From a virus, in the UHGV virus genome UHGV-0356033: a stretch of DNA of 45,424 nt; one strand, given 5' to 3'. Both the position numbers and the translations under genes were made by a program. The notes below the pieces were generated by a model. The model was not told the origin of the DNA. It worked only from the letters and a program-made list of their open reading frames with translations, and ran no database searches. Positions within the stretch are counted from its first letter, which is position 1. Every line of letters begins with the position of its first letter. Shown here one piece after another: positions 6,534 through 36,905 of the stretch.

Positions 6534-8030
6534 TTATTTCTTTTTCGTCAGGAACTTCGGTTCTAGTCCATCGACAGCCATACCCAGAATGGTACGTGCA
6601 GTCAGTGTACGTTTACCGCCTTTGGTTTCCTGGTCTTTAAACATCCAGTATTCTACCGTGTTGTCCAGAATTTCATTCCAGTCCCACATCTCGTCAATCA
6701 GTTTGTAAATCTCACCCATGCTGAGATGATACTTCATTTCAAGACGATGGTAGTTGTTTTGCATATACGCAATTGCCGCAGTGATTTCTAAAGCGCGACG
6801 TAAGCGGGCGTTATCAGAAATCATATCACGGATCGTCGTGCGTTGGAATTTCACACCAGGTAGAATATCCAGTTCTTTGATGGAACCGCCACTACCGCTT
6901 GATGTGAAACCAAAGTCTGACTTCTTCAGCGTGTCACTTAAATAGTGCCACAGGCTCAGGTGATATAGCAGACCCATTTCCTGAGAGAAGATCATCTGAA
7001 ATTTCACACCGGTGTGACCACCCTTCGCACGATACTGGGTAAAGGTGATAATCTTCAAGTCGTTTACCGACGCATTCATCGCTTTAGAACGTGACGTCGG
7101 ATAAAGTTCTTCGTTAACACCCGTCTGCGCGTTATAGCTCTGGTCTTTCTTCAATTCCCCTGATTTCGTCGCGACGATAAAAGAGTTTGTTAAAAAGCTA
7201 AGCTGACGGCGAGGAATACCTGCGAATTTTAAATCGTCGTTGGCGTCGTCGAGAATTTTTGCATTTGCTTTTTGAGCCTGTCGGCCACCCGCCATCGCTT
7301 TCCCAGAGTCATCGGCCATCTGTGCCACGAAGCCCATGTAAAAACCACCGCGTGCAAACGCAGACGGCCAGCGGCTCATCATATTCGATTTTTGCAGCGC
7401 ATCGTGGGCGTTTAGGATGTTCTGATCAGAATCCCCAATATCAGTTTTTGCGTGTTTGTCTTCCAGCGAACTGGAATGCCACTCTGACAGGGAGTCGATA
7501 GAATAAAGCCAGGGGTCCAGGATTTCTTTTAACTTACGACGAACTGGATCGGGGAACGGTGTTACGCGGGTTTTACCAGACATATACTGCTTGAAGCGTT
7601 TTTCAACTTCATCACGAATATAATCACTGTAATACTGTTCCCCGGGCATTACGTCAGAACCGACCAGGTTATAACGACCTTCGTGGATAAGTTCCAGTAC
7701 GGATGTTCCGTCGTCGATACCGTTGGCGTTCATGGCAGAGATGTACCCAGTTTCTAAACGATCGAGGGCAGCGGACACTTCTGTATCGTACTTAGAACCC
7801 CACTCTGCTTTATAACGTTGCAGGATTTGGAAGATACAGAAATCTAACAAGGTGGATTTAAAGGTGTTTCCGCGACCTGCGAAACCCATGATGTGGGCAA
7901 AACCACCGTTAAGGTAGTACAAACCATCTTCACCTTTTTCGTAGTTACCTAAGGCATGATCCATGATGGTGTAAACGTTAAAACGTGGACGAATTACTTC
8001 ACCGATAACTTGCTTAGTTGGGCCTGCCAT
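6534..8030 (-). CDS. hypothetical protein (498 aa)
   Basis: Long ORF; ATG 8030-8028 with GGAG SD; contains GFAGRGNTFKST segment that is only loosely P-loop-like, so no function called. Confidence 0.6.
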   Translation of the reverse strand: MAGPTKQVIGEVIRPRFNVYTIMDHALGNYEKGEDGLYYLNGGFAHIMGFAGRGNTFKSTLLDFCIFQILQRYKAEWGSKYDTEVSAALDRLETGYISAMNANGIDDGTSVLELIHEGRYNLVGSDVMPGEQYYSDYIRDEVEKRFKQYMSGKTRVTPFPDPVRRKLKEILDPWLYSIDSLSEWHSSSLEDKHAKTDIGDSDQNILNAHDALQKSNMMSRWPSAFARGGFYMGFVAQMADDSGKAMAGGRQAQKANAKILDDANDDLKFAGIPRRQLSFLTNSFIVATKSGELKKDQSYNAQTGVNEELYPTSRSKAMNASVNDLKIITFTQYRAKGGHTGVKFQMIFSQEMGLLYHLSLWHYLSDTLKKSDFGFTSSGSGGSIKELDILPGVKFQRTTIRDMISDNARLRRALEITAAIAYMQNNYHRLEMKYHLSMGEIYKLIDEMWDWNEILDNTVEYWMFKDQETKGGKRTLTARTILGMAVDGLEPKFLTKKK

Positions 8031-18862: not shown

Positions 18863-18865
18863 TGA

Positions 18866-19489: not shown

Positions 19490-19495
19490 AAAGAT

Positions 19496-19532
19496 TACCC
19501 TACTCCCGAAGGAGTAGGGTAGCTTTTATTTT
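19496..19532. terminator. bidirectional intrinsic terminator
   Basis: 11-bp stem 19496-19506/19511-19521 (TACCCTACTCC/GGAGTAGGGTA) with CGAA loop, followed by TTTTATTTT. Confidence 0.65.
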
Positions 19533-20082: not shown

Positions 20083-20099
20083 TTTAATACTCCTAAGGT

Positions 20100-20135
20100 G
20101 GAAAAAGAATTAACCCTACTCCCGGAGGAGTAGGG
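20100..20135 (-). terminator. intrinsic terminator downstream of gene 20144..21076
   Basis: Stem 20114-20122/20127-20135 (CCCTACTCC/GGAGTAGGG) with CGGA loop; T-run on minus strand. Confidence 0.6.
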
Positions 20136-20143
20136 GATTTAAA

Positions 20144-21076
20144 TTACTTTTTGGTTTGACCCAGGTTTTCAAGAACCAGTTCACGAATGTACTTCTGAGT
20201 ACGTTTCTTCGGCGGTAAAGCCATAAGGGTGTCAACGATTCCCTGCCCACCGATAACCTTGCTGACGAGTTGTTGAACTTGGAAGAGTTCTGCTTCTTCG
20301 TCACTGATTTCATTAGCTTGGTCTTTCTGACACAATGCTTCTACCAGGTCAGCTACGGATATTTCATTTTCGTCACCAGGGAAATCCAGGTTTAACGATT
20401 CGAAAACATCACGCTTAACGAGCACAGATTTCAGATCATCGTAGTTTTCACAAACGGCGACTTCTGTGCCAGGTACCGTTTCTTCTTCGTCTTGATCTTC
20501 ATTCTCAGCGGAGAGGTAACTTACTTCTGTTGCGTGGAATGTTGCGTCAGCTTTTCTCAGGACGTAGCTCACATGCGACCAATTGCTCAGGATGAAGTAG
20601 ACAACACCCCCATTTAATCCGATATTGCCCTGGCGAAGTTCGAGAGCAATTTCCAGGCGGCGTGAAATCTGCCCCAAGTCAAAGAAAGACTCGTCGCGTG
20701 CCGCAACAACTTCGTACTGATTCACCCCTTGTTCTACAACAACGAACCAGTTATCCGGGAGAGGATACGGGTTGCGCATGAAAGAAAGTTCGTTCCCTAC
20801 GCCTGGGTCAACAGTAACGGATGTATGGCGCATTCCCATGGAGAAGTTGAACGTATCCCCATTTAGAACCGCAATTGCACCGTCAATCGGAAGAATTTTG
20901 GTGGTACGATCAATAGAGAAAATCTCTTTCTGCGTAATTGAAGGCTGATTACTGCCTAGGAAGTGATTACGCAGAAAAGCAGCGGTTGCACCTACGCTGG
21001 TTTGTAGCATATGGTAATTATAACGACGACGTAGAGTGTTAGCCAGTTCGTAAATTACTTCAGATGGAAAAGTCAT
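20144..21076 (-). CDS. hypothetical protein (310 aa)
   Basis: ATG 21076-21074 with AGAGGA SD. Confidence 0.6.
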   Translation of the reverse strand: MTFPSEVIYELANTLRRRYNYHMLQTSVGATAAFLRNHFLGSNQPSITQKEIFSIDRTTKILPIDGAIAVLNGDTFNFSMGMRHTSVTVDPGVGNELSFMRNPYPLPDNWFVVVEQGVNQYEVVAARDESFFDLGQISRRLEIALELRQGNIGLNGGVVYFILSNWSHVSYVLRKADATFHATEVSYLSAENEDQDEEETVPGTEVAVCENYDDLKSVLVKRDVFESLNLDFPGDENEISVADLVEALCQKDQANEISDEEAELFQVQQLVSKVIGGQGIVDTLMALPPKKRTQKYIRELVLENLGQTKK

Positions 21077-21129
21077 TTTAATAGTCCTCTTTTAGGTTTG
21101 TTCAAATCAACTAAGGGTTATGTAAAAAG

Positions 21130-21609
21130 TTAAAATAATGGCAAGTTACGCCATTGACCTACGGAATAAAAAGCTTTTGGATGTTTACGGATATACGCTT
21201 TCGCTTCTTCTGGCAACCAACGGTCACCTACCAGTTTTTGTTGTGCAACAATTACCGCCATCAACAAATACGGGTTTTTCGCACCGGGGAACTTTGCATT
21301 GGTTTCTAGTGCAATATCCAATATTGACGACCAGCCCAGTAATTTATGCTGCGCCGGTAAACGTTCTTCAATATACATCAGCCATTTCATGATTTGTTTA
21401 GGCTTGTACGGACAGGTATAATTCGCCCAACACACCATGACGAACTTAATAGCCTTCGCAATCACCCATACAGGGACAGTCACGAAAAGGCAGAAAATGG
21501 CCAACTGCGAGGCGGGCGCTTCGACAAAAGTAAGCGCTACAAGAACCATACACAGTTCAAGTACCACAAACCAAAAACGCGTTGGATAACGCCAAATGAA
21601 TTTTATCAT
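21130..21609 (-). CDS. membrane protein (159 aa), two N-terminal hydrophobic helices
   Basis: Hydrophobic stretches FWFVVLELCMVLVALTFV and LAIFCLFVTVPVWVIAKAIKFVMV. Confidence 0.5.
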   Translation of the reverse strand: MIKFIWRYPTRFWFVVLELCMVLVALTFVEAPASQLAIFCLFVTVPVWVIAKAIKFVMVCWANYTCPYKPKQIMKWLMYIEERLPAQHKLLGWSSILDIALETNAKFPGAKNPYLLMAVIVAQQKLVGDRWLPEEAKAYIRKHPKAFYSVGQWRNLPLF

Positions 21610-21629
21610 AACTCTGTTCCTTTAGGGAA

Positions 21630-21670
21630 TGAAAATAAAAGTACCCCTTACTCCGTATAGGGTAAGGGGT
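21630..21670 (-). terminator. intrinsic terminator downstream of gene 21676..22185
   Basis: Stem 21643-21651/21662-21670; T-run on minus strand. Confidence 0.5.
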
Positions 21671-21675
21671 AGAGG

Positions 21676-22185
21676 TTAGAAGAACGGCTGGTTTGGAATG
21701 ACAGCGTACTCTAAAATGAACATGTGTTCTGGGGCGTCTTCTTTACGCCAGACTTTGTGTGTCGACACAAGTTTTTCCAGAATCGTTAAGAAACTACGTT
21801 GGCAGTATGTGTTTTCACCAAGCAGTAGATTTTGAAGTTCTACAGTAGCGTCCATATACGCCTGTTTAAAGACTAAATTACGGTTATACTGCCCGGTAAA
21901 ATTCCAAAGCAAGACTTTCCCTTCTTCGGTTTCTTTTACCGTTGGTCGTAAACCACAAATCCACAACAAGGCAAGGTTGACGTTCCAGTCAAACTCTAAA
22001 CCTTCTTCTTCGTCATCACCGAATGCTGTGGGTAAAGCATCGTAAAATTCGTGTTTCTCTGCGAATTCTTCATCCGACTTAATCTCGTCTTCGATACTGC
22101 TTCGGACGATACTGTAAACGTCTTTCGCGGTCAATTGTGCGGCTTTTGTAATGCCTTTATACCAATCGGTTACTACGATGCTCAA
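21676..22185 (-). CDS. hypothetical protein (169 aa), TTG start
   Basis: No ATG at 5' end; TTG 22185-22183 preceded by AGAGGAG SD with 7-nt spacer; overlaps TGA of upstream gene. Confidence 0.5.
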   Translation of the reverse strand: MSIVVTDWYKGITKAAQLTAKDVYSIVRSSIEDEIKSDEEFAEKHEFYDALPTAFGDDEEEGLEFDWNVNLALLWICGLRPTVKETEEGKVLLWNFTGQYNRNLVFKQAYMDATVELQNLLLGENTYCQRSFLTILEKLVSTHKVWRKEDAPEHMFILEYAVIPNQPFF

Positions 22186-22880
22186 AGGGTAACTCCTCTA
22201 TTGATTGGAAAACTCGTGTTTATCGTATCCCAAATTCTACTAACTTCCGCCAGTTGAATCTGACGTGGTGTTTTCTTCGCAAACGCAAGCTGACGTGGGG
22301 CCGAGCCCACAACAACAGGCACATCGATTTTCGCGCTATAGAACGCGGCGTCTTTCATAAAGCCTGCCATTTCTCGTTGTGCTGCTCGAGATTTGCTTTT
22401 GATTCGCGTGTGAGCGCCACTTTCACCCCAGTGGTAAGCTAACGCAATTTCAGCCATGGTGGGCTTGCGTTTGAGTCGTTTGGTTAACCCCTTCTCAAGA
22501 TGTTTAACATACGCAGTAGCCAGCAAAACAGCGTTACGCGGATTATACAAATCGGCGTTCTGACTAAGACCTAATTCTTTTCCATAAAGCTTTAGCAGAT
22601 TACGCTTGGTACTTGGAAGCATTTGTACCAGGCTATGTGCTCGTGAGCTTTTGTTGTAAGCCTTGGGATCAAAACGCGATTCACGATAAATCAGCGTAAT
22701 CATCAGCTTGGGATCAACGCCCTGCTTTCGTGAGATTTCCACAATTAACGGGCTGACTTTTTCGAACCGATGTTGGATTTGTGCAAACTCACGCTGATGC
22801 TTAGAATGTGGCGTTGACGTTGACGCCTGTGCGTTAAACGCGAAAAGTGTTACCAGTAAAAGGAAGAAGATACGAAACAT
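22182..22880 (-). CDS. secreted lytic transglycosylase, SLT domain (232 aa)
   Basis: Signal peptide MFRIFFLLLVTLFAFNAQA; SLT catalytic-region motif LIYRESRFDPKA...AHSLVQMLP; ATG 22880 has GGAGA SD (alternative ATG at 22907). Confidence 0.55.
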   Translation of the reverse strand: MFRIFFLLLVTLFAFNAQASTSTPHSKHQREFAQIQHRFEKVSPLIVEISRKQGVDPKLMITLIYRESRFDPKAYNKSSRAHSLVQMLPSTKRNLLKLYGKELGLSQNADLYNPRNAVLLATAYVKHLEKGLTKRLKRKPTMAEIALAYHWGESGAHTRIKSKSRAAQREMAGFMKDAAFYSAKIDVPVVVGSAPRQLAFAKKTPRQIQLAEVSRIWDTINTSFPINRGVTL

Positions 22881-22980
22881 TTTGTTTCTCCAGTTGGATT
22901 TATACATTTCCGTATTCCGTAAGACGAAATGACGGCGCGGACAGCTAATACTCCTTTGTTGTGTGCCCTAATGATAATAT

Positions 22981-23478
22981 CTATTTAAAAGAGTTTGGAA
23001 TTAATGACTCTGCTTCTTGGTACAACTTATCAGGTAAGTATAACGTGTAGCACTGCCTCCTCGGTTCAAGTTTTTTGTAAAGCCACAAAAAGATTTCTTG
23101 TCTTTCCCAGGAATCTAACCACCCATTTGCCATTCCCAGTGGAGGGATAGCAACGCTGGTATCCAGTTCCTCAACACAATCTGCTAATGCGGTAATGCCC
23201 GCAGTAACATAAGAAACCTGGGACTTTAAACGCCAATGTGTTTTCGTTGGGAGCAAGATGCACTTTTCATCAGGGTAAACGTAAACGCTTCCAATCTTAA
23301 TTTCGTCTTCGCGACACCGCTTACGGTAATCTTGATAAAGGTTGGGGTAGCGTTCACGGCACGCCAGTGCAATACCGCGACCCATCGCTCCTACGCAGTT
23401 AATGGTAACGACTTTATAGTCTTCGGGCGCATTAAAAAGATCGTTACCAATTTCAGATTCTTTACGTACCGTTAACAT
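22981..23478 (-). CDS. macro-domain-like protein (putative ADP-ribose binding or hydrolase), 165 aa
   Basis: VVTINCVGAMGRGIA resembles macro N-A-A-N...G-G-G-V-A motif and VAIPPLGMANGW resembles the macro F-P-x-I-S-x-G-x-x-G motif; start at 23478 chosen from domain architecture, weak SD. Confidence 0.4.
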   Translation of the reverse strand: MLTVRKESEIGNDLFNAPEDYKVVTINCVGAMGRGIALACRERYPNLYQDYRKRCREDEIKIGSVYVYPDEKCILLPTKTHWRLKSQVSYVTAGITALADCVEELDTSVAIPPLGMANGWLDSWERQEIFLWLYKKLEPRRQCYTLYLPDKLYQEAESLIPNSFK

Positions 23479-23565
23479 AACGAAACGCCCGGAGTTGATG
23501 TGTAGTATTAAAACGTGTACCGCCGATTGATAGCTCGACAAGTATAGCGATATATGTTTTACCCA

Positions 23566-23934
23566 TTATCGATTTTTCGTAATCCATTGCTTGACCGCCG
23601 CTTCTAAACCTTCGTGTTGTAAGCCCAGGCGTTGCATAGTCAGCGCCAAGTTGAGCGTGTGCACAACCTGTTCACGGAACTGATGATCGTTCATGCGGTC
23701 CCAGACCTTCTCTACCGAAATATTGTATTTCCAGAGCAAATAAGCTTCACGACACGATGCGCGACGAACCAAACTAGGTTTAACAAAAGGCAACTCGATT
23801 TCAGGCAAGTAACCTAAAAGCTTAACTAGCGGCGTTACCTGCGTCTTACCAAAGTCACCGCACTGATAACAAATTTGTAGAATATCAATTTCATTCAACG
23901 GTATACCGTAAATTGATGGGTTCTCTGTGAACAT
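23566..23934 (-). CDS. hypothetical protein (122 aa)
   Basis: ATG 23934 with GAGGAGAA SD; contains CYQCGDFGKT. Confidence 0.5.
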   Translation of the reverse strand: MFTENPSIYGIPLNEIDILQICYQCGDFGKTQVTPLVKLLGYLPEIELPFVKPSLVRRASCREAYLLWKYNISVEKVWDRMNDHQFREQVVHTLNLALTMQRLGLQHEGLEAAVKQWITKNR

Positions 23935-24136
23935 TCATATTCTCCTCAGGCTCGAAATGTGATTCGGGTGGCAACGTCCCTAAAGCCCCTTGGATACAAG
24001 CCGTCAGTGAAGGTTTGCCGAAACAGACCTTACCTATTGTCCCAACATTGGGATGCTGTAAGAACGCTTTTGCACGTTCGTATTCCTTCCAACAAATACT
24101 CGTATCCAAACCACCCACTCCGTACGATTTTAACAT
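23891..24136 (-). CDS. hypothetical protein (81 aa)
   Basis: ATG 24136 with AGGAGG SD; 3' end overlaps next gene by 44 nt in another frame. Confidence 0.45.
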   Translation of the reverse strand: MLKSYGVGGLDTSICWKEYERAKAFLQHPNVGTIGKVCFGKPSLTACIQGALGTLPPESHFEPEENMNVHREPINLRYTVE

Positions 24137-24202
24137 AATTAGCCCTCCTGACGTAAATTTCTCACACTCATAGTGAGGTACGCCAAGAGAGCTTTATTGT
24201 TT

Positions 24203-24646
24203 TTAGAATGTTTTGCTAAAATCGACCCACTCACGATCGCGTGAGTAAACCGCCTGATAGCCGCGTCGGATGAAATACTCTTTTGCTTCTTTACATTTCG
24301 CATACATGCCAGTAACAATTTCGCCGAAAACTTCATCAGCTGCAATTGCTTTGAAAATCTCTTTCATTACACCCCGTTGACGATAGTCTGGGAGCACGTA
24401 TACCGAACGTATCTTAAGTGAACCGTTACGATTCCGATAACTACAGTATCCTACCGCGACATCATCCTGATACACCAGAACTATGCAGTTACCTTCGATC
24501 AGCTGTCGCGCATTTAACTTCGGCACCGACATTTTGATTTTCAGTAACGTGGCCTGGTGGTCTAAGTAACGGTAGTGCAGTTTGAGTAAATCGGCAGCTT
24601 GTCGCTCACCGACTTTAGAAGATGCGTTCAACAAATAAATTTCCAT
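24203..24646 (-). CDS. GNAT-family N-acetyltransferase (147 aa)
   Basis: GNAT-like core VYVLPDYRQRGVMKEIFKAIAA and C-terminal YFIRRGYQAV; ATG 24646 with AAGG SD. Confidence 0.5.
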   Translation of the reverse strand: MEIYLLNASSKVGERQAADLLKLHYRYLDHQATLLKIKMSVPKLNARQLIEGNCIVLVYQDDVAVGYCSYRNRNGSLKIRSVYVLPDYRQRGVMKEIFKAIAADEVFGEIVTGMYAKCKEAKEYFIRRGYQAVYSRDREWVDFSKTF

Positions 24647-24677
24647 TTGCAAACCTTAGAGACGCAAAAAAGTAAAA

Positions 24678-24806
24678 TTAAAACCAACGCGCGATGACGA
24701 AAGCCGCAGCGGCTAATATGGCTGTGGTGATTATCAATCCACCCCATGAAAGTTCCGCGTCGTATAGTGCGGATATCGCTACATTCGTAGCGTTTATCGT
24801 GGTCAT
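24678..24806 (-). CDS. small membrane peptide (42 aa)
   Basis: Hand-translated: MTTINATNVAISALYDAELSWGGLIITTAILAAAAFVIARWF; AGGAG SD 6 nt upstream of ATG 24806; too short for ORF track. Confidence 0.35.
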   Translation of the reverse strand: MTTINATNVAISALYDAELSWGGLIITTAILAAAAFVIARWF

Positions 24807-24863
24807 TTTCTGCTCCTGTCAATACCCTCATACCGGAGGGTATCTTCTGGATTATCTGGGTGG

Positions 24864-24962
24864 TTAATCTTCGAACGCCCAACGGTGACGTTTAATCAGC
24901 CAGTTTAAACCTTTACCAATTAACCACAACGAGCCAAGTGTTAACAGAACCCCTACAACCAT
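24864..24962 (-). CDS. small membrane peptide (32 aa)
   Basis: Hand-translated: MVVGVLLTLGSLWLIGKGLNWLIKRHRWAFED; AGGAGAGGG SD upstream of ATG 24962; too short for ORF track. Confidence 0.3.
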   Translation of the reverse strand: MVVGVLLTLGSLWLIGKGLNWLIKRHRWAFED

Positions 24963-24972
24963 ATTCCCTCTC

Positions 24973-25158
24973 CTAATTCCGCCATTCGCATTCGCGTTGA
25001 CGCCAAATTGAACCCCATGATAGTTTAATCAGATAAGATGAAACTACCCATAAAATCATCACCACACAAAACATGACATAAAGAACCGCTAGTATGGACA
25101 TGAAGCCAAACCCTGCCGCATCCACAATACGACGGAACCAATCAGTTTGCATAAACAA
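24973..25158 (-). CDS. small membrane protein (about 59-61 aa)
   Basis: Hydrophobic core FGFMSILAVLYVMFCVVMILWVVSSYLI; TTG 25158 with GAAGGAG SD 6 nt upstream (or ATG 25152); overlaps 3' end of ATPase gene. Confidence 0.4.
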   Translation of the reverse strand: MFMQTDWFRRIVDAAGFGFMSILAVLYVMFCVVMILWVVSSYLIKLSWGSIWRQRECEWRN

Positions 25159-27646
25159 TTTTTACTCCTTCGTTATACACCGCAGGCAATGTCACCCCTT
25201 CCGGTTCGATGACACAGTACGATGCTTCATTAAGTTTAGAATGAACCTCGGCTTCGTGGGAGACTACCAACAGTTGAGAAAATTCTCCCGAGTTTGCTAA
25301 CGTTTTAATAAAACCGACCAGGTTGTTACGGTGCTCCTCATCCATGCCTTCCGAAGGCTCATCCAAAAGCAACGGAAACTGATGCAACTTCAGCGCTTTG
25401 TACGCAGTCAGCCTGAACATCAGATTAAATATCGCACGCTGCGCCTTAGACCCTTTACGCACGTCAGGAACAGGCTCAGGATGCGTTTTTAGCTGGACAG
25501 GAAAAGTATAATCCAAATCGCCGTCAGTGAGGTCACAAGGCATAACGCGCATGGGGTACGTCCAGACCTGTTCGATATAACGCGTCATTAACTCTGTGAT
25601 TCTAACGATAGCGTTGTAAAAATACTTTCTAAGTACACCCTTTTCTGGCGAGAAGGCTTGAATCATCAGTTTGTTATTGAACTGCTGGGCTTGTAAGTCA
25701 GCAAGTTCGCGTTCCAAACTGTTGAGCTGATTCAATTCATTTTCCATCTGACGATAACGTTCGCGTGCGGTTGTAAAAGCATCCAGCTTCCCTTCTCGAG
25801 CACGTAAGAGTTCCTCGACGACCGTATTTGTCAACGTAACCTTAACATCACTCTCTAACCGTTCGAATAACGCACTGAAATCATCTACAGCACGTTTAAC
25901 ATTCACCAGATAGGTAAGTGTCGTGTTAGCCAGTTCGTGCTCTCTACGACGCATTGAGAGCATCTCTGTGGCTTTACCTAATCGTGACTGTTGAAAAGCA
26001 ATTTTCTGTTGTAAAGCACCATCGACGTTACCAACGGCCGCTACGGCATCCTGCCATTCTTTTTCCGCCTTCACTAACCGTTGTCGGGTTTCATGGTACT
26101 CAATAGCAGAGTACAACTCACCGTCAAACGCTGCGCATAGACTCCCGAACTGCTCGCGTGATTCTGTGAAAACGTTACGTTCTTGCAAACGCTTAAAGAA
26201 CATGCTCAATACCGGGTCCTTTGAATACGTCAGCACAATCTCACGAACCTGCCGCATATAAGTTACATCAGATTCTAACTCAACACGATCGCGTAATAGG
26301 GCCTCTAACTGCGTTTGCAGTTCCGTGCGCTGCTGCTGTTGTCCGCGAATCGAAGACTCAAGTTCAGGTAAAGAACGTGTAACACCAGGCCGAAACTTAA
26401 ACCGGCACTGCGGACAATCCACTTCCGCTGTTTCTAAGTAGTGATTACGTTCGTGATTTAAATTCTGTAAAACGTTCTCCACTCGCTGGAGTCTATCCCG
26501 CAACCCTGCGGTTTTTTGATCCATCACCAGAAGCCGTTCTTCCAAAACATTGAGTTTTTCAGTTGAATGAATTGCGTCCAGTGTTGTTCCTAACCGTTGC
26601 CCCCAGACACGCGCATCGGTAGCCGCACGAAGTTGGTCTAAATTGACGTTGTCGTTAAATAGACCCGGAAAGAGATGCTCGGTGTCCCATTTGGTAAGTA
26701 ACTCACGTAAACGCGCCAATGTATTCTTGAGACCTTCGTGATTCCGCATCAGGTAGTCTTGTCGTGTCGACTCATCCATCAATAACGACAAGTCTTTATT
26801 CAACATCGATACCTCTGTTTCAGTAGACACGACAGCTTCGCGGGCCGTCGCTTCGTTTTGTCGCGCGGCCAGTATCTGTTCATCAGTAGGCAGTCCACCA
26901 CGATGTTGTAATATTGCGTCGATGGTTGGGCCCAAGCTGTTTAATAACGCTTGGATTGTTTCGATGGTGACGGCACGATTTAATCCTGGCAACTGTTCGA
27001 TTTCTCGGTTCAGTTCACGTAAATCCGATTCCAAACCTTTTAATCTCGTCGCCAACTGCTGCCGTTCTTCCTCGTTCTCAATAACACGCGTCCGCAATTC
27101 GGCGATTTTACGGCTGGTGATTTCAATACCCCCATTTAAGGCAGTAAGGTTTTTACGTAAACGTTGATAAAACCCTAACGCGTAGGTGAGGTCAGAGGTA
27201 CTTAAACGGTAAAACCACTTACGACGCAGTTCCGTTCCTGCATCCGTTAAAAGCACTTCTCCGTTCAGTAGTTCTTTAATCTCTTTTGTAATGCCTGTGA
27301 TTTCTTCAACACGGGAGTTGTAGACTTTCGCATTACCTTGCTCGACGATCTTTGCCCCCGTGGTCAAGTTCTCAATATCACAAACCAGTGAGTTCCCTTT
27401 ACGGGCAACTTTGAAACGATAGCGTTGATCGCCAACTAAACAGTAGTTCGTGTAAGAACCGCCGTCTCTGAATTCAGTTTTAGCCGGTGCTAAGGGTAAG
27501 AACACAGACAGTAGACTGGTTTTCCCGCAGCCGTTCCCACCCAGGATAATTGTTGTTGGAGACTGGATAGTGAAATCGAAAGTTTCAATTTCATGTAACC
27601 CCATCCCCGTAAAACCTTTGAGTATAATGCGTTCAACTTTTAGCAT
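25142..27646 (-). CDS. Rad50/SbcC-family (SMC-like) ATPase with coiled coil and CxxC zinc hook (834 aa)
   Basis: Walker A GGNGCGKTS near N-terminus; long coiled-coil middle with CPQC; C-terminal signature-like GSKAQRA, Walker B LLLDEPSEGMD, H-loop VVSHEA; start set at ATG 27646 (GGAGG SD) rather than track 27721. Confidence 0.6.
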   Translation of the reverse strand: MLKVERIILKGFTGMGLHEIETFDFTIQSPTTIILGGNGCGKTSLLSVFLPLAPAKTEFRDGGSYTNYCLVGDQRYRFKVARKGNSLVCDIENLTTGAKIVEQGNAKVYNSRVEEITGITKEIKELLNGEVLLTDAGTELRRKWFYRLSTSDLTYALGFYQRLRKNLTALNGGIEITSRKIAELRTRVIENEEERQQLATRLKGLESDLRELNREIEQLPGLNRAVTIETIQALLNSLGPTIDAILQHRGGLPTDEQILAARQNEATAREAVVSTETEVSMLNKDLSLLMDESTRQDYLMRNHEGLKNTLARLRELLTKWDTEHLFPGLFNDNVNLDQLRAATDARVWGQRLGTTLDAIHSTEKLNVLEERLLVMDQKTAGLRDRLQRVENVLQNLNHERNHYLETAEVDCPQCRFKFRPGVTRSLPELESSIRGQQQQRTELQTQLEALLRDRVELESDVTYMRQVREIVLTYSKDPVLSMFFKRLQERNVFTESREQFGSLCAAFDGELYSAIEYHETRQRLVKAEKEWQDAVAAVGNVDGALQQKIAFQQSRLGKATEMLSMRRREHELANTTLTYLVNVKRAVDDFSALFERLESDVKVTLTNTVVEELLRAREGKLDAFTTARERYRQMENELNQLNSLERELADLQAQQFNNKLMIQAFSPEKGVLRKYFYNAIVRITELMTRYIEQVWTYPMRVMPCDLTDGDLDYTFPVQLKTHPEPVPDVRKGSKAQRAIFNLMFRLTAYKALKLHQFPLLLDEPSEGMDEEHRNNLVGFIKTLANSGEFSQLLVVSHEAEVHSKLNEASYCVIEPEGVTLPAVYNEGVKIVYAN

Positions 27647-27676
27647 ACCCACCTCCATAAAGACGGAGTGTGGTGT

Positions 27677-27719
27677 AAAAAGAAAAAAATAAAGAAAGGG
27701 AGAACCCGAAGGTTCTCCC
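27677..27719 (-). terminator. intrinsic terminator downstream of gene 27725..28333
   Basis: Stem 27698-27706/27711-27719 (GGGAGAACC/GGTTCTCCC) with CGAA loop; long T-run on minus strand. Confidence 0.6.
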
Positions 27720-27724
27720 AAACG

Positions 27725-28333
27725 TTATTTGGTGTACAGGTGATAACCCATTGAAGTCCAATAATCGACGTTCTTCGTGTTTTCTACCCAAACCTGTCCC
27801 GCCTTTGTGGCTAAGACTTCCATTGTCAATGTACAGATCAGATTTGTTACCGGGATACAATTTCCAGGTGTAACATCATCCAGATAAACCGGATATAAAA
27901 ACGGCGATTTAATGGATTGGTACGGGTAAGAATAGTGGTTACCGACTTTCCACCCTTCTTCTACAGGACAGAGATTAAAAGTACGTGTTTCAGGAACTGC
28001 ATTTTCAGAGATCCAGTTAACAACATCGGCTTTGATTCGATCGTGGTCGATATAGTAGAACACAACACGTTGTGGGATGCTTGTGGTACCAGCCGGATCT
28101 AAAGCCTCCAGCGCCTTGAAAGGCGACGTCAACAATGTTGTACTGTTTTCAAGCGCGTAAACCAACTTTTCGTAAGCGGTCGGCGTTTTGCGTTTAAAAT
28201 ATTCCCGTAAGCGTGGGTACGCCAGGAAGCCCTCTACTTCTTCTTCCATTAAGTCGATGAATAAAGGCGTGTGCGAAAAACGCTCTGCATTTTGCATCGC
28301 TTCAAGAAAACGAACTAATGTAATTTCGTTCAT
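27725..28333 (-). CDS. hypothetical protein (202 aa)
   Basis: ATG 28333 with AAGGAA SD; no Mre11/SbcD phosphoesterase motifs seen. Confidence 0.55.
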   Translation of the reverse strand: MNEITLVRFLEAMQNAERFSHTPLFIDLMEEEVEGFLAYPRLREYFKRKTPTAYEKLVYALENSTTLLTSPFKALEALDPAGTTSIPQRVVFYYIDHDRIKADVVNWISENAVPETRTFNLCPVEEGWKVGNHYSYPYQSIKSPFLYPVYLDDVTPGNCIPVTNLICTLTMEVLATKAGQVWVENTKNVDYWTSMGYHLYTK

Positions 28334-28350
28334 CTGGTCTTTCCTTTTAG

Positions 28351-28381
28351 ATCAAAAAAAGAAGCCCCGAGTAAACGGGGC
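28351..28381 (-). terminator. intrinsic terminator downstream of gene 28390..28866
   Basis: Stem GCCCCG/CGGGGC (28364-28369/28376-28381); T7 run on minus strand. Confidence 0.55.
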
Positions 28382-28389
28382 CGGGCTAA

Positions 28390-28866
28390 TTATAGCCCTA
28401 AGTGCGTGAGTGATAAAATAGGCTGCGTTTCACCTTTAATCGTCGCGAAGGAACGATACATTTCTGCGTTACTTGAAAAAACTTCGTTAGCAACAATACA
28501 TTCACCCGTCTCTAAAGAAAGGAGATAAATGTAGTCACTCCATACGCTTTGTACCAACACCCATTCAAGTGTGGTGTCATTTTCGCGTGTTGTCCGCAGG
28601 TGGTGAAAGTAAGGCCGGATTGCATCAACCGCCGCATTAAAACGACGGTGATAAATTCGGGTTAAGTCAAATGTCCAGATTGTTTCCAGGTCGACTGGAT
28701 GTAATGTGCGCACCGTTTCGATAATCGTCGACTGATCGTTAATACGTGAGGCTTCGGCGATACGCAGTAGTTTCCAGGCCACCGTTAAGTTGTGGCGAAT
28801 TTGTTCAGGTTTAGCCGACAGGTCATGATGAAATTGCGCAGCTTGGTAAACGTTAGATAATTGCAT
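28390..28866 (-). CDS. hypothetical protein (158 aa)
   Basis: ATG 28866 with AAAGGAG SD. Confidence 0.55.
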   Translation of the reverse strand: MQLSNVYQAAQFHHDLSAKPEQIRHNLTVAWKLLRIAEASRINDQSTIIETVRTLHPVDLETIWTFDLTRIYHRRFNAAVDAIRPYFHHLRTTRENDTTLEWVLVQSVWSDYIYLLSLETGECIVANEVFSSNAEMYRSFATIKGETQPILSLTHLGL

Positions 28867-28894
28867 TTTAATACTCCTTTAGGTAAAACATGTC

Positions 28895-28923
28895 GTAAAA
28901 AGGACCCCGGACGTACCGGGGTC
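28895..28923 (-). terminator. intrinsic terminator downstream of gene 28934..29323
   Basis: Stem GACCCCGG/CCGGGGTC (28903-28910/28916-28923); T-run on minus strand. Confidence 0.55.
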
Positions 28924-28933
28924 AAGACTACAC

Positions 28934-29323
28934 TCAATGATCTAATTCGATAGCACCAGCCATCTTGCCCCGTTCTTCGATAACGATCAGATAACGGTCG
29001 CGTGATTTGCTTTTAGCGAGAGTTAAGACAACAGTAGGGTCGCACGTTTTTGTGGTGATTGGAAGAACCTCTTGTGCGACGGAATCGAGCAGAAAGTAAT
29101 AACCTGCGGGACACATTGTTCCACCATCAGCTTTTACCAGAATATAGCGCCCGTCTGCGCCGACTTCTTGGCAGATTGTTTCACCGACTTCACAAACTTC
29201 AAACCCCGGAGGATTGTACTGGTAATCGGTATTGTTGTTTGGGGTTAGCAGTAAATCGTTAACGTGAGTAGATGCTGCTACACTCAGGGAGAAGAAGAAT
29301 GCTAAAACGCAGACGAGACGCAT
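28934..29323 (-). CDS. small secreted Cys-containing protein (129 aa)
   Basis: Signal peptide MRLVCVLAFFFSLSVAAS; AAGGAG SD; several Cys in mature part. Confidence 0.55.
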   Translation of the reverse strand: MRLVCVLAFFFSLSVAASTHVNDLLLTPNNNTDYQYNPPGFEVCEVGETICQEVGADGRYILVKADGGTMCPAGYYFLLDSVAQEVLPITTKTCDPTVVLTLAKSKSRDRYLIVIEERGKMAGAIELDH

Positions 29324-29333
29324 GAGTTACTCC

Positions 29334-29744
29334 TTAAATTTTAAGTTTATCCATAGCCACAACGATAGGTTTTTCCGAAGTGTCTAATATCCCTACCATT
29401 GGCACACCATCTACGACTTTGAAGAATGGTTTGTTATTGCCTGAGCACAACTGTTTGTCGTTGTATTCGAGACGTTGAGCCTTCCACGTTTCGAGGTTGA
29501 GTACGGACATCGGGCTGTCGTAGCACCAGGCACCGCCTTGCTCAACGATGAATACGTATCTGCTACCTTTGTATTTAAACAGACTCTTCGCCTGGCAGTA
29601 CAACCCGTCAATTTCCGTACAATAGAAATCATCGGTGCTATTGACGTATTTAATACCGTCTGGTAACTGTGTTGTTTTTGCTGTAGCGTTAACAGAGAAC
29701 AGAACAGCAATTGCAATGAGAAGAGTATTGATGATAGTTTTCAT
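29334..29744 (-). CDS. small secreted Cys-containing protein (136 aa)
   Basis: Signal peptide MKTIINTLLIAIAVLFSVNATA; AAGGA SD. Confidence 0.55.
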   Translation of the reverse strand: MKTIINTLLIAIAVLFSVNATAKTTQLPDGIKYVNSTDDFYCTEIDGLYCQAKSLFKYKGSRYVFIVEQGGAWCYDSPMSVLNLETWKAQRLEYNDKQLCSGNNKPFFKVVDGVPMVGILDTSEKPIVVAMDKLKI

Positions 29745-29755
29745 GATAGAAGTCC

Positions 29756-30241
29756 TTAGTATTTAGATTGTTCTGCGTATTTCTTAACCAGGTAAGCGAA
29801 TTCAGCAACACCGATATCACCGAACCAAATCAGATAACCGGGGTCGATGTTGTAGTAATAACCGACAAGTTTCTTGGTGTGTGGGTTGTATAGCGTTACG
29901 ATATATTCCCAGCCACAAGCGTTAGCTTTACAACCGCCGCTTTCAATCCAGATTTTGTTGTTGATGTTTACCGGATACATGTTACCTCCAGGGCCATCCA
30001 TGTAACCTTTAGAGCCGAACATACCATCCAGTCCCACGCGGTCTAGTGTTTTATCAACAACGGCTTTAAACGACTTATCGGTATCGTACAAGTCGTTGAT
30101 GTTTGGGCACGCATTTGGCTGACCTTCCCAAGCGTTTCCATCACAGGTAAGCAATTCGTCTACGGAGGCCGCATCTACAGTTGGTGTGACACCGATAAAC
30201 AAGAAAACCAGAAAGAACATCAGTGTATGTAAACGTTTCAT
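29756..30241 (-). CDS. small secreted Cys-containing protein (161 aa)
   Basis: Signal peptide MKRLHTLMFFLVFLFIGVTPTVDA; AAGGAG SD. Confidence 0.55.
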   Translation of the reverse strand: MKRLHTLMFFLVFLFIGVTPTVDAASVDELLTCDGNAWEGQPNACPNINDLYDTDKSFKAVVDKTLDRVGLDGMFGSKGYMDGPGGNMYPVNINNKIWIESGGCKANACGWEYIVTLYNPHTKKLVGYYYNIDPGYLIWFGDIGVAEFAYLVKKYAEQSKY

Positions 30242-30259
30242 TGTAACTACTCCTTTAGA

Positions 30260-30652
30260 TTATTCGGCAGGACGATTTAAGGTAACGCGCCCGATTAATT
30301 CGGCGTTGTGAAAGAAGTCCACAGCGGTATAGTTACCAACTGATAGCGGATGGATACTAACTGACATTACTTTTGGTTGCTCGCAGGCAATATCCGTCAG
30401 ACGTTGGTAGACTTGTGCACGGGTGTCAGCAATGAGTAATCCCGTACACGTTTCACCACGCACTAAACGATAAACTTGCAGTTTACCGAAACTGCGCATT
30501 AACGTAGGCGTCTCATCCGGGTTGATAATCGGTGAGTCAGGAGCCGGTTCGTAATAGCGGACATCCGAATCACCGAAAGCATAAGTACCGGTAATACCGA
30601 CTGCACAGAAAATAATGATAGTATAAAGTATAGTTCTGATATTCATTTTCAC
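30260..30652 (-). CDS. small secreted protein (130 aa)
   Basis: N-terminal hydrophobic signal MKMNIRTILYTIIIFCAVGITGTYA; start (GTG 30652 or ATG 30646) uncertain. Confidence 0.45.
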   Translation of the reverse strand: MKMNIRTILYTIIIFCAVGITGTYAFGDSDVRYYEPAPDSPIINPDETPTLMRSFGKLQVYRLVRGETCTGLLIADTRAQVYQRLTDIACEQPKVMSVSIHPLSVGNYTAVDFFHNAELIGRVTLNRPAE

Positions 30653-30674
30653 GCACTCTAAAAAAGATTAATAT

Positions 30675-31136
30675 TTATTTGTTAGGACGGGTGTGTCCAC
30701 AGTTCTGGAAGAAAGTTTCAGACAGACGTTCGCCTTCTACGGTAAAGTTAGCGGCGTCGTTACCATTGATACTCACACTGAAAGTTTTGGCATTACCGAT
30801 GGCATTAACGAAAGCAACCCAAGCGCGTTCTGCTTTGTCACTACCGTCCACGGTAGGGATGTTATAGGTTTTGCCGTTTACGACAATATCGATCGTGTTA
30901 TCTTCAGCGTTAGTTGCACCTACGGGTTCACCGTAATACCAAACCATGCGACCGTAAAATTTGCGATTCGCAGTTTCAGTGTCACAGTTGATAGACAGTC
31001 CGTTTCCGGCGGTGTCTTCGATTTCGTAAACTGCCTGGCCAGGGTTTTGTATTTGTTCCCAGCTGTTGATAGCGGCGTGTGCGCTATTGAGGCCGAAAGT
31101 TAAAATGGTTATTAAGAAACTGATAAAGGTTTTCAT
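30675..31136 (-). CDS. small secreted protein (153 aa)
   Basis: Signal peptide MKTFISFLITILTFGLNSAHA; AAGGAG SD. Confidence 0.55.
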   Translation of the reverse strand: MKTFISFLITILTFGLNSAHAAINSWEQIQNPGQAVYEIEDTAGNGLSINCDTETANRKFYGRMVWYYGEPVGATNAEDNTIDIVVNGKTYNIPTVDGSDKAERAWVAFVNAIGNAKTFSVSINGNDAANFTVEGERLSETFFQNCGHTRPNK

Positions 31137-31182
31137 TGAAATGCTCCTTCTGGTTATGGGGAAGTTCCCACAAATTATGAAA

Positions 31183-31554
31183 TTAAATAACTGTGTTGGG
31201 GAATGCTTTAATCTGTGTATAACTATCTCCGATACCTCTTATCATTTCCAGACGTTCTTCTGTAGAAAGGCTTTGGTTAATGTCTTTGTCGAGATTGAAC
31301 AGTGTCAAGAGTTTTGCAATTGCAACCGTCAGGTTGTCGGACAGCTCGTTGTTTTTACGCCATTCTTCGTTACGGAAAATAGAGATAAGGTCTTTCGCCT
31401 GGCCTTCAGCGTGTGGTTTGGCTAACTGCGCGTCACGCTGTTCGATAAGGTATGCTTCGTTGGTAAGTAAACGTTTCAGGTCTTCTGGGTTAGTGGCAGC
31501 GCGAGTAACGATCAGTAATACAACAAACGGGTCTTTAAATAATTCGTTTTTCAT
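31183..31554 (-). CDS. hypothetical protein (123 aa)
   Basis: ATG 31554 with AGGAGAA SD. Confidence 0.55.
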   Translation of the reverse strand: MKNELFKDPFVVLLIVTRAATNPEDLKRLLTNEAYLIEQRDAQLAKPHAEGQAKDLISIFRNEEWRKNNELSDNLTVAIAKLLTLFNLDKDINQSLSTEERLEMIRGIGDSYTQIKAFPNTVI

Positions 31555-31584
31555 CTTTAGTTCTCCTAAAATGGTTTTAGTTAA

Positions 31585-31626
31585 GTGAGAGCTTTTGTAC
31601 TCTCACCTAAGTAATATATATCTGAA
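31585..31626. promoter_or_regulatory. conserved regulatory element copy 1: stem-loop plus 19-bp motif TAAGTAATATATATCTGAA
   Basis: Stem GTGAGAG/CTCTCAC (31585-31591/31600-31606) immediately followed by motif at 31608-31626; identical 19-mer recurs at 35894-35912. Confidence 0.4.
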
Positions 31627-31644
31627 ATTATTTTTAATATTAAC

Positions 31645-31679
31645 GAACAAAAAATAAAAGGTGGGGGTTTACCCCCACC
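31645..31679 (-). terminator. intrinsic terminator downstream of gene 31684..32262
   Basis: G/C stem GTGGGGG/CCCCCAC around 31660-31679; T-run on minus strand. Confidence 0.5.
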
Positions 31680-31683
31680 GATG

Positions 31684-32262
31684 TTATACATCGAACCGGT
31701 ACTGCCGGGAGTTAATGAGGAACTCGGTATTCAGCTCAATCCATTCGAGTAAATCACCCAACGGTAATCGGTTTGGGTTTTCTAACTCAATAGACGCTAC
31801 CGGATAAGAGTTTACTAATTCCGTAATTGCCTCAATACCCTCTTGCGTTCCATCGTCTTCTAAGGTGATTGTAAACGGCATATCGGCACGATCCGCATTA
31901 GGATTGTACAAACTGACTTTCGTTGCTTGGACAAACGCAGTCAGGTCGTCACGTATAATGCGTGTATCAGGCGCTAGAACTACCCAGAGATGTTGTCCTG
32001 GCTGGAGTTTACGTTTTGCGTAGTTTAAGAACGGATTAGCCGGTAAGCTTTCTAAACCACTGCAAATGTTCCGTAAATGAATCCCTCGTGGGTCTTTATA
32101 GTCCACGCTGAAGATTCCTACCGGTTCCTTCGCTGCCTGTTTTATCAGAAAGACCAATACCGTGTCCGCTCTTTCTGGTAAGGAAAGCTCTATTCCCTCA
32201 AGCTCCCCATCGACGAGGTTTTCCAACCAAACGTCTTTTCGCATTTCTATTAATCGGTACAC
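31684..32262 (-). CDS. hypothetical protein (about 186-192 aa)
   Basis: ORF; GTG 32262 with GAGGTGG SD, or ATG 32244. Confidence 0.5.
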   Translation of the reverse strand: MYRLIEMRKDVWLENLVDGELEGIELSLPERADTVLVFLIKQAAKEPVGIFSVDYKDPRGIHLRNICSGLESLPANPFLNYAKRKLQPGQHLWVVLAPDTRIIRDDLTAFVQATKVSLYNPNADRADMPFTITLEDDGTQEGIEAITELVNSYPVASIELENPNRLPLGDLLEWIELNTEFLINSRQYRFDV

Positions 32263-32274
32263 GGTACCACCTCA

Positions 32275-33048: not shown

Positions 33049-33061
33049 TTCTATTTCCTTC

Positions 33062-33089
33062 TTAACAAAAGCCGCGACTAAAGCGCGGC
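33062..33089 (-). terminator. intrinsic terminator downstream of gene 33116..34267
   Basis: Stem GCCGCG/CGCGGC (33071-33076/33084-33089); TTTTGTT on minus strand. Confidence 0.45.
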
Positions 33090-33115
33090 AGTTAGAGAAA
33101 GTGTATTTTCACTTA

Positions 33116-34267: not shown

Positions 34268-34296
34268 TTTTACTCTCCTTTAGGGTTTTTCGTTAC

Positions 34297-34851: not shown

Positions 34852-34880
34852 GGTATATTCTCCTTTTTCGGTTTTCTTAA

Positions 34881-35939: not shown

Positions 35940-36905
35940 ATGGAGAAATCCAGTGTTGATTTTTTCTCAATTGGTATCGTCGCGGAAGACAAACCCCGTG
36001 GTACAGATCGGGTAAAAGTGATACCAATTGAAACCAACTTTGCTAACCCTACCGTGGTGCAATCTGTTTCTTCAGCAACTGAAAAGACACACGAAACATC
36101 TGGTGCAACAGATAACCTAACCATTAAGACGGGAAACACGATAACGGCAAAGTGGTGGAAGTTTAACTCCAACCGAATTAATTCCCCTGACGTTAAACGA
36201 GAAGACTACGTTATCTTGTTACGTTTGGGGAAAACCGATATTTATTTTTGGATTGATCTGAACTTCGCTAACGTTAAGCGATTAGAAGATGCGGTTTATG
36301 CGTGGTCGGCTGACCCTGAAAACCAAATGGCGGATGACCTGTCGAACGCGTATGTGTTGAATGTCTCGACAATTGACAAACATATCACGCTAAGAACAAG
36401 TATGGTAAACGGCGAGAAAGCGGCGTGGTTGTTTCAGTTTGATAATGCAAACGGTACGTGGCAGTGTGTTGACCATAAAGGAAACAAGTATTACATTAAC
36501 TCGGTGGAAGACGATTTAGGTTTTGAGAATGCGATGCTTTCAAAAGTGAACATCAACAAAGAAGATGCGTTCATTTATTCAAAGCGTTCTATTAACCTGG
36601 AAACGAAAACGATTAATGAAAAATGTGAAGTCCGCAATACAGAAGCAGCGAAATCCGTTACGTTTAAAACACAAACCTGGTTAACGGAAGCGGGAAGTTC
36701 GACAACGTTTAAAACGCCGAACTTTAAACAAGAAGGGAAGGAAGCGATGTTCACCGGTAATTTGGAAGTCGCTAAGAACTTCAAATACGGTGGTACGGGT
36801 GAAGGTGTGGGTGTCTTTACGGTTAAAGATGCCATTATTTCCGGTATTACCTTTAGCGTTCACATTCACCAAGGTAAACATGGCCCGACATCACCTCCGC
36901 AGTAA
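35940..36905 (+). CDS. hypothetical protein (321 aa), possibly virion or tail associated
   Basis: ATG 35940 with AAGGAA SD; sits at head of rightward tail-fibre region; beta-rich T/N/K composition; function not recognised. Confidence 0.55.
   Translation: MEKSSVDFFSIGIVAEDKPRGTDRVKVIPIETNFANPTVVQSVSSATEKTHETSGATDNLTIKTGNTITAKWWKFNSNRINSPDVKREDYVILLRLGKTDIYFWIDLNFANVKRLEDAVYAWSADPENQMADDLSNAYVLNVSTIDKHITLRTSMVNGEKAAWLFQFDNANGTWQCVDHKGNKYYINSVEDDLGFENAMLSKVNINKEDAFIYSKRSINLETKTINEKCEVRNTEAAKSVTFKTQTWLTEAGSSTTFKTPNFKQEGKEAMFTGNLEVAKNFKYGGTGEGVGVFTVKDAIISGITFSVHIHQGKHGPTSPPQ

Follow-up and report, generated by a model that had tools for sequence, protein, structure and literature searches.

The present study concerns a 45,424-nucleotide (nt) stretch of the virus genome UHGV-0356033 (hereafter the window), in which a gene for an SbcC/Rad50-like ABC ATPase occupies positions 25142..27646 on the minus strand. 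The gene encodes 834 amino acids (aa) plus a stop codon, and is the orthologue of gp186 of Salmonella phage SPN3US, gp207 of Erwinia phage Asesino, and orf165 of phiKZ. A preliminary description of this DNA presented the gene as an orphan, a zinc-hook ATPase without an adjacent Mre11/SbcD nuclease. The open reading frame (ORF) starts with ATG (MLKVERI...), and a GGAGG Shine-Dalgarno sequence lies 5' of the start. A longer, TTG-initiated version of 859 aa overruns the upstream terminator, and gene callers do not use the TTG start on identical contigs.

The motifs listed in the preliminary description, namely, Walker A, a coiled coil with CPQC, a signature-like motif, Walker B, and the H-loop, were all located on the minus strand. 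The Walker A/P-loop (GGNGCGKT, residues 36–43; 27518..27541) is N-terminal, and its residues G36, N38, G39, G41, and K42 are invariant. The other half of the split ABC head is C-terminal. It consists of a degenerate ABC signature (GSKAQ, residues 732–736; 25439..25453) with an invariant S733, Walker B (LLLDE, residues 759–763) followed by the D-loop (SEGMD, residues 765–769; both within 25340..25372) with invariant D762, E763, and D769, and the H-loop (VVSH, residues 794–797; 25256..25267) with invariant S796 and H797. The CPQC zinc-hook motif (residues 411–414; 26405..26416) is at the apex of the coiled coil. Two sets of homologues were compared: an alignment of 11 sequences, which extended down to 19% identity and included one phage of the phiKZ species, and 26 database homologues. 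The key residues of Walker A and B, the CxxC cysteines C411 and C414, S733, the D-loop, and the H-loop were invariant in both sets. P412 was invariant among the 11 sequences and nearly invariant among the 26. The GSKAQ signature aligned with canonical CSGGE and GSSGQ in distant family members. Judging from these alignments, the motif pattern is the result of conservation and not chance.

An AlphaFold2 model of the ATPase was built on the 26-sequence alignment (mean predicted local distance difference test score [pLDDT] of 81.7). In this model, an N-terminal beta-rich lobe (residues 1–104) is followed by an ascending helical arm (139–405), an apex of approximately 20 residues containing CPQC, a descending arm (426–694), and the C-terminal lobe; a long antiparallel coiled coil thus lies between the two halves of the head. 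CPQC forms a short turn linking the helices 365–405 and 426–474. A globular hinge domain was not found at the apex in either the model or the alignment. The apex carries CxxC in place of an SMC hinge, as in Rad50/SbcC, and is predicted to be a zinc hook. The predicted coiled coil has two low-confidence breaks, at residues 291–299 (~26750–26776) and 537–547 (~26006–26038) on the minus strand, which are positioned roughly symmetrically around the hook. These breaks may represent an elbow or discontinuity similar to those in SMC and Rad50 arms.

Searches with sequences, profiles, and the model consistently placed Rad50/SbcC first. The ATPase matched phrog_77 ('SbcC-like subunit of palindrome specific endonuclease') at E=4.6e-91 (308 bits). 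A PDB search with the single sequence retrieved Rad50 heads, and that with the 11-sequence profile returned Rad50 of P. furiosus and M. jannaschii at the top (7.5e-13), with SMC, RecF, retron ATPases, and ABC transporters ranking below them. The best Foldseek match of the model was Rad50 of the C. thermophilum MRN complex (7zr1, E=8e-17); Smc5/6, condensin, Lamassu LmuB, MukB, and JetC followed at lower ranks. The similarity to characterised Rad50, in both profile and fold, exceeds that to other ABC/SMC families, and the reassignment to such a family that the preliminary description had named as a possible refutation did not occur. Because of the CxxC apex and lack of a hinge, we conclude that the window ATPase is a Rad50/SbcC-type protein and not an SMC protein proper.

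Megablast with positions 24000–30000 of the window against the phage collection gave zero matches, and tblastn was used instead. With the ATPase as the query, tblastn identified 290 phage records, all of which were jumbo phages. The closest were the Erwinia phages Asesino, Stratton, and phiEaH2 (Erskinevirus; 71% identity), followed by Salmonella phage SPN3US and its relatives (Seoulvirus; 58% identity). The matches to Asesino gp207 (71%) and SPN3US gp186 (58%) spanned the full length. The comparison of synteny suggested in the preliminary description showed that gene order around the ATPase is the same as in Asesino and SPLA5c, which places the gene in the gp186/gp207 group by both orthology and position. 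The exact 834-aa ATPase was also present on the ENA metagenome scaffold ERZ28628744 scaffold_14 (224,230 bp), which was 98.0% identical to the window at the nt level across 8.5 kb. The IMG/VR contigs of 225,000 and 220,786 bp were 96.7 and 95.0% identical, respectively, across 8.5 kb (window 22145–30647 in the case of 3300029126_000001), while more distant clade members were 76–79% identical. Since the ATPase is 71% identical to Asesino gp207 and 58% identical to SPN3US gp186, the window is, from its sequence, part of a phiKZ-like (Chimalliviridae, nucleus-forming) jumbo phage of ~225 kb, with Erskinevirus and Seoulvirus as its nearest genera. The phage is probably a member of 'Bapsvirus', a group that was proposed recently and occurs in assemblies of Salmonella, E. 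coli, and Shigella.

The preliminary description was accurate in that no Mre11/SbcD gene lies beside the ATPase, and we found none in the 45-kb window. In tblastn of SPN3US SbcD against the window, the best E value was 0.6. A hidden Markov model (HMM) built from 42 family SbcD sequences was run with all filters off against six-frame segments of the window of at least 40 aa, and its best score was 1.5 bits (E=2.7). An SbcD orthologue in the window would have been obvious because SbcD is 53–100% conserved among the relatives of the window. A Pfam scan of all window ORFs, concatenated with linkers, also revealed no Metallophos domain; this was uninformative because the control, SPN3US SbcD, was likewise Pfam-negative, and the scan was therefore replaced by tblastn and the family HMM. 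The Serglycin, PRIMA1, and Mito_fiss_reg matches in the Pfam scan were artefacts of the GS/poly-P linkers. The product of a 244-aa exonuclease gene at 15676–16410 was considered as a substitute nuclease and rejected; it is DEDD/Rv2179c-like, not Mre11-like, and its gene is 9 kb away. The unassigned neighbours of the ATPase, which encode proteins of 202 and 158 aa, matched only PHROGs of unknown function and yielded no SbcD homologue.

In contrast to the window, SbcD was found in every relative examined. In the phages closest to the window and their clade, it lies 86–88 kb from SbcC. The IMG/VR contigs 3300029126_000001 (225,000 bp; SbcC 53,684–56,185, SbcD 143,104–144,249), 3300045988_113438 (220,786 bp; SbcC 150,922–153,423, SbcD 19,128–20,273), and 3300045988_078609 (224,831 bp; SbcC 130,793–133,294, SbcD 43,658–44,803) had separations of 86.9, 86.5 (shorter arc), and 86.0 kb, respectively. 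Two closed circular records deposited as 'plasmids' gave similar values: 86.8 kb in NZ_CP134650.1 of Enterobacter ludwigii (222,441 bp; SbcC within 16,254–19,450, SbcD 106,252–107,392) and ~88 kb in NZ_CP173450.1 of E. coli 98232 (221,873 bp; SbcC across the record origin, SbcD 132,786–133,926). RefSeq labels both SbcC and SbcD as 'hypothetical protein' in these records. In SPN3US (240,413 bp; SbcC 168,900–171,407, SbcD 21,020–22,168), the genes are 147 kb apart as deposited and 90 kb apart along the other arc; the corresponding values in Asesino (246,290 bp; SbcC gp207 170,896–173,406, SbcD gp44 21,690–22,910) are 148 and 95 kb. SbcD did not adjoin SbcC in any of the seven annotated relatives. 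Within the window, the two flanks of the ATPase measure only 25 and 18 kb, and with a separation of 86–88 kb in the relatives, the partner falls outside it.

Therefore, the Mre11/SbcD search proposed in the preliminary description was negative for the window and positive for the genomes of its relatives. A cognate SbcD is encoded in the same genome as SbcC in relatives with 95–97% nt identity to the window, and also in the distant part of the clade (76–79%). We also observed that tblastn with SbcC and with SbcD each returned 290 phage records with near-identical genus counts, which indicates that the two genes tightly co-occur. The ATPase is real and was correctly read at the sequence level; however, it is not an orphan. 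Of the two alternatives that had been offered, the relatives show the nuclease elsewhere in the genome to be correct, whereas a different context for the ATPase was not supported; no neighbour resembles a nuclease or a defence-system partner. The premise that this ATPase is normally paired with its nuclease in an operon is typical of cellular sbcDC and T4 46/47; however, separation is the published rule in phiKZ-like phages (PMC5105663).

The identity of the partner was examined by its motifs and profile. A pattern scan with the single Asesino SbcD protein missed the clade of the window, which was recovered with an alignment as the query, followed by the SbcD of the clade itself. The clade protein comprises 382 aa and matches phrog_100 ('SbcD-like') at E=1.2e-59. 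In an alignment of 42 homologues extending down to 25% identity, D22-x-H24, G57, S100-H101 (within GTPSHD), H180, and H212-x-H214 were invariant, and D58, D61, and D102 were nearly invariant. The 42-sequence profile matched T. maritima Mre11/SbcD at 1.7e-12 (positions 9–303 and 15–345), a nearly full-length match spanning the nuclease and capping domains, and P. furiosus Mre11, E. coli SbcD, and human MRE11 were matched at lower ranks. Thus, the partner in the relatives has the phosphoesterase motifs I–V (DxH, GDxxD, GNHD/E-type, H, and GHxH) and, by profile, the predicted nuclease-plus-capping-domain fold of Mre11/SbcD. A negative Pfam scan is not equivalent to the absence of SbcD in Chimalliviridae, and a Pfam-based statement of 'no Mre11' for these phages would be a false negative.

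The key features of the locus had already been described in the literature. Thomas et al. (2016) described SPN3US gp186 as an SbcC subunit with a coiled-coil region of more than 600 residues, homologous to phiKZ ORF165 and essential by amber mutation, named gp27 as the SbcD of SPN3US, and noted the 'drastically separated' positions of SbcC and SbcD in the genomes of SPN3US, phiKZ, and their relatives (PMC5105663). Later work by Iyer et al. agrees with that study. SbcC and SbcD are practically universal among jumbo phages (PMC7824862), and a transposon screen in 2025 recovered zero insertions in phiKZ orf165 (PMC12676376). Therefore, SbcC of the window and the split SbcCD arrangement are a rediscovery of what is known for phiKZ-like phages. 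As a discovery, they matter little: the 2016 study had already reported that the genes are split, that SbcC is essential, and that a small membrane gene lies beside it. The lesson is one of annotation: when a jumbo phage subunit looks like an 'orphan' within 45 kb, this is usually an artefact, since functional modules are scattered in these phages.

We conclude with high confidence that the window gene is the SbcC subunit of a phage SbcCD/Mre11-Rad50 DNA-end-processing complex in a phiKZ-like jumbo phage, the SbcD of which is encoded ~87 kb away. By analogy to E. coli SbcCD, Mre11-Rad50, and T4 gp46/gp47, ATP would be sandwiched between two ATPase heads by Walker A, Walker B, and the signature, and would drive their engagement. 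Two CxxC hooks, with four cysteines, may hold Zn2+ and join the coiled coils, while an SbcD dimer would dock at their base. The complex may then clamp and resect DNA ends to generate single-stranded DNA, which would be passed to the phage UvsX-like recombinase (6534..8030, minus strand; phrog_97, E=1.2e-55; syntenic with Asesino gp238), a likely downstream user of resected ends. This step would feed recombination-dependent replication and the repair of the phage genome. SbcCD may plausibly reside within the phage nucleus, given that phage RAY has UvsX and further DNA enzymes in this compartment (PMC10299810/bioRxiv 2023.02.24.529968).

Several points weigh against this assignment. The signature motif of the ATPase is degenerate (GSKAQ as opposed to SGGE/Q). 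The Pfam SMC_N match is below the gathering cut-off (34.3 against 40 bits), and the NCBIfam Rad50 score is far below its cut-off. On the side of the nuclease, Pfam-A gave no match at E<=0.01 for the SbcD-like partner (SPN3US SbcD), which Metallophos misses, and the NCBIfam sbcd model gave a score of only 18.7 bits. SbcD in the window's own genome was deduced from relatives with 95–98% nt identity. Furthermore, the knock-down of phiKZ orf165 with an antisense oligonucleotide resulted in only a mild phenotype (PMC12571901). The subunit interaction and the ATPase, zinc-binding, and nuclease activities of phiKZ-like SbcCD are predicted; the experimental data are limited to genetic essentiality in SPN3US and phiKZ.

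Three tiny membrane peptides are encoded downstream of the ATPase on the minus strand, as the preliminary description stated; all are hydrophobic and two have PHROG families. A 59-aa single-pass membrane peptide (24973..25152; maximum KD19 value of 2.82; phrog_16515, E=1.2e-4) is followed by a 32-aa hydrophobic peptide (24864..24962; phrog_13448, E=6.6e-14) and a 42-aa membrane peptide (24678..24806; KD19 value of 2.12), the latter two of which are kept in relatives. The start of the 59-aa ORF overlaps the stop codon of SbcC by 11 nt, which suggests from the sequence that it is translationally coupled to SbcC. In the clade of the window, the Seoulvirus-type members, and several other relatives, a small transmembrane (TM) ORF begins between -10 and +41 nt from the SbcC stop; Ralstonia phage FLC4-3B has a 42-aa TM ORF 3' of SbcC. 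Such an ORF is lacking after SbcC in phiKZ-type phages, Aphrodite1, Simmy50, and pAEv1810, and is absent in most distant members. In SPN3US, the gene for the small TM protein gp187 lies directly 3' of gp186 and has been compared to T4 gp47.1 (PMC5105663). Three to five tiny single-pass membrane ORFs (32–75 aa) trail SbcC throughout the Seoulvirus/Erskinevirus clade and the clade of the window, and in several of them the C-terminus is conserved as '...Q/HGWF' or '...RWF'.

These membrane ORFs form the basis of one alternative, in which the ATPase works with SbcD while the small membrane peptides also tether or regulate it, as proposed for T4 gp47.1 with gp46/47. In that case, the site of action would be a membrane or the periphery of the nuclear shell, and the complex would not act freely on DNA. 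The overlap of the single-pass TM ORF with the SbcC stop, the recurrence of a small TM ORF at this position as far as FLC4-3B, and the same idea raised by Thomas et al. for SPN3US gp187 (PMC5105663) speak for tethering. However, the lack of this ORF in phiKZ-type phages, Aphrodite1, Simmy50, and pAEv1810 argues against a core feature, such genomes commonly contain clusters of tiny membrane genes as filler, and DNA-processing proteins of these phages localise in a proteinaceous, non-membrane nucleus (PMC10299810/bioRxiv 2023.02.24.529968). We regard a membrane tether as unlikely. From the suggested translational coupling to the single-pass peptide and the degenerate GSKAQ signature, we also considered a broader departure from a plain soluble resection machine, in which SbcCD of this clade is anchored or gated by the membrane peptides at a membrane or nuclear-shell boundary, or SbcC has an SbcD-independent role linked to the carrier-like persistence of these phages in bacterial isolates. 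We find this distinctly improbable.

Other explanations deny the ATPase its role in SbcCD altogether. It may be a stand-alone conflict protein, SMC/Lamassu-like or RloC-like, that acts together with an effector other than Mre11 in defence, counter-defence, or competition between phages. PADLOC matched LmuB to residues 2–803 (E=1.4e-18, 65 bits), LmuB structures were among the Foldseek matches, and a nuclease is absent beside the gene. However, 65 bits for LmuB compare with 308 bits for phrog_77, and PADLOC identified no LmuA-like or LmuC-like neighbour of the ATPase. Moreover, the gene is a conserved, syntenic part of the family core with record counts that match those of SbcD, and it is essential in SPN3US and free of transposon insertions in phiKZ, which fits core replication/recombination and not an accessory conflict gene. 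We judge this explanation to be very improbable. The same applies to a true SMC chromosome organiser, a condensin-like compactor of the phage genome in the phage nucleus. In its favour, the best Pfam match is SMC_N, the GenBank name is 'SMC domain-containing protein', and the Foldseek matches include Smc5/6, condensin, and MukB. However, there is no hinge; the apex of ~20 residues with its invariant CxxC is a hallmark of Rad50/SbcC, and Rad50 came first in sequence-profile and fold searches. The Pfam scan of window ORFs revealed no kleisin-like neighbour, whereas a cognate Mre11-type partner exists in relatives.

As an SbcC subunit, the window protein resembles most closely SPN3US gp186 (with gp27), phiKZ orf165, and their orthologues in Chimalliviridae, with which it shares length (834–836 aa), motifs, and separation from SbcD. 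The local synteny with the gp186/gp207 orthologues includes the 202-aa gene upstream, the small TM ORFs downstream, and GNAT, macro domain, and transglycosylase genes further on. The window differs from the SPN3US and phiKZ systems in belonging to a distinct clade of ~225 kb and in having a shorter leader, and no functional difference is in evidence. T4 gp46/gp47 are needed for recombination-dependent replication. They also combine a phage Rad50-type ATPase with an Mre11-type nuclease and have a small membrane gene at the locus (gp47.1, as compared with the 59-aa ORF of the window). However, the T4 genes are clustered, while those of the window clade are ~87 kb apart, and the coiled-coil insert of the window protein is ~300 residues longer. 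T4 gp46/gp47 and phiKZ-like SbcCD have no BLAST-detectable similarity (PMC5105663).

E. coli SbcCD and archaeal and eukaryotic Mre11-Rad50 share with the window protein the split ABC head, antiparallel coiled coil, and CxxC hook, their partner is a calcineurin-like phosphoesterase with motifs I–V, and they provide the best PDB matches in sequence and fold. In contrast to the phage system, the cellular genes form an sbcDC operon. Identity is <=20%, the signature of the window protein is degenerate, and its partner is too divergent for Pfam Metallophos. Lamassu LmuB also has a Rad50-like head and coiled coil and shows a profile similarity of 65 bits; however, the window gene lacks LmuA and LmuC partners, matches phage SbcC far better, and is an essential core phage gene, not one of a defence island.

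Upstream of the ATPase, an intrinsic-terminator-like hairpin, GGGAGAACC-TTCG-GGTTCTCCC, with a T-run (27683..27719, hairpin 27719–27698, minus strand) ends the 202-aa gene. The stem is kept through compensatory changes in six relatives. A promoter-like element follows at 27656..27680 (minus strand), in which TTTTACAC is separated by ~17 nt from a TATG that is invariant in the seven relatives; these have the hairpin, a T-run ending in TTTTTACrC, and TATG ~17–20 nt further on. The middle/late promoters of phiKZ have AAanTTACc near -24 and TATG with +1 at G (PMC4666361). TTTTACAC...TATG resembles this layout, and we infer that it is a putative promoter. Because a conserved upstream terminator is followed by this phiKZ-type TTAC...TATG element, SbcC appears to be its own transcription unit, which probably runs on through the three small membrane peptides. 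The leader from TATG to the start codon is ~24 nt shorter in the window than in the relatives. Similar hairpins are present 3' of the genes ending near 28363 and 28903.

The preliminary description placed a 202-aa gene without phosphoesterase motifs behind the terminator hairpin. The hairpin is indeed present, and the 202-aa protein (27725..28333, minus strand) is clade-specific, with only four homologue clusters. It matched phrog_9964 (no function assigned) only, and had no match in Pfam, NCBIfam, or PADLOC. Its AlphaFold2 model had a pLDDT of 67, and the best fold match, an RNase-H-like fold at E=0.06, was not significant. We conclude that it is not a phosphoesterase. The gene is not next to SbcC in distant family members. 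The adjacent 158-aa protein (28390..28866, minus strand) matched only phrog_8115 (no function assigned; E=4.6e-16) and gave no match in Pfam, NCBIfam, or PADLOC.

In distant members of the family, namely, the phiKZ-species phage 14Ps5-6, Vibrio Aphrodite1, Erwinia Simmy50, Aeromonas pAEv1810, and Ralstonia FLC4-3B, SbcC is head-to-head with a baseplate-assembly gene. In the window, this gene is at 35940..36905 on the plus strand (phrog_3216, E=3.7e-114), and ~8.3 kb of clade-specific small genes (27725–35618) lie between it and SbcC. The 202- and 158-aa ORFs are part of this clade-specific insertion and, therefore, are not conserved partners of SbcC. Elsewhere, the window encodes RNase H (14153–15673), the above-mentioned DEDD/Rv2179c-like 3'-5' exonuclease (phrog_255), an SLT transglycosylase (22182–22907), and macro domain and GNAT proteins; together with the UvsX-like and baseplate genes, these agree with the jumbo phage origin of the window.

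The clade of the window phage (~220–228 kb) turns up within bacterial isolate assemblies. The SbcD cluster of the clade has 248 members and, among the 40 of these listed, contigs of 222–228 kb are labelled Salmonella enterica, E. coli, and Shigella flexneri. The circular 'plasmids' of E. coli 98232 and Enterobacter ludwigii are two further related genomes of this type. The carrier-like persistence of Chimalliviridae ('BAPS'/'Bapsvirus') was already published and matches this observation (PMC12768965); the presence of the clade in isolate assemblies is not new. The small genes at 27725–35618 are all on the minus strand, and several of them (28934–31136) have N-terminal signal-peptide-like sequences. 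At least four paralogues at 31684–35618 share a C-terminal '...GW...V...G.QLLF.A' motif and match phrog_26772 and phrog_33648.

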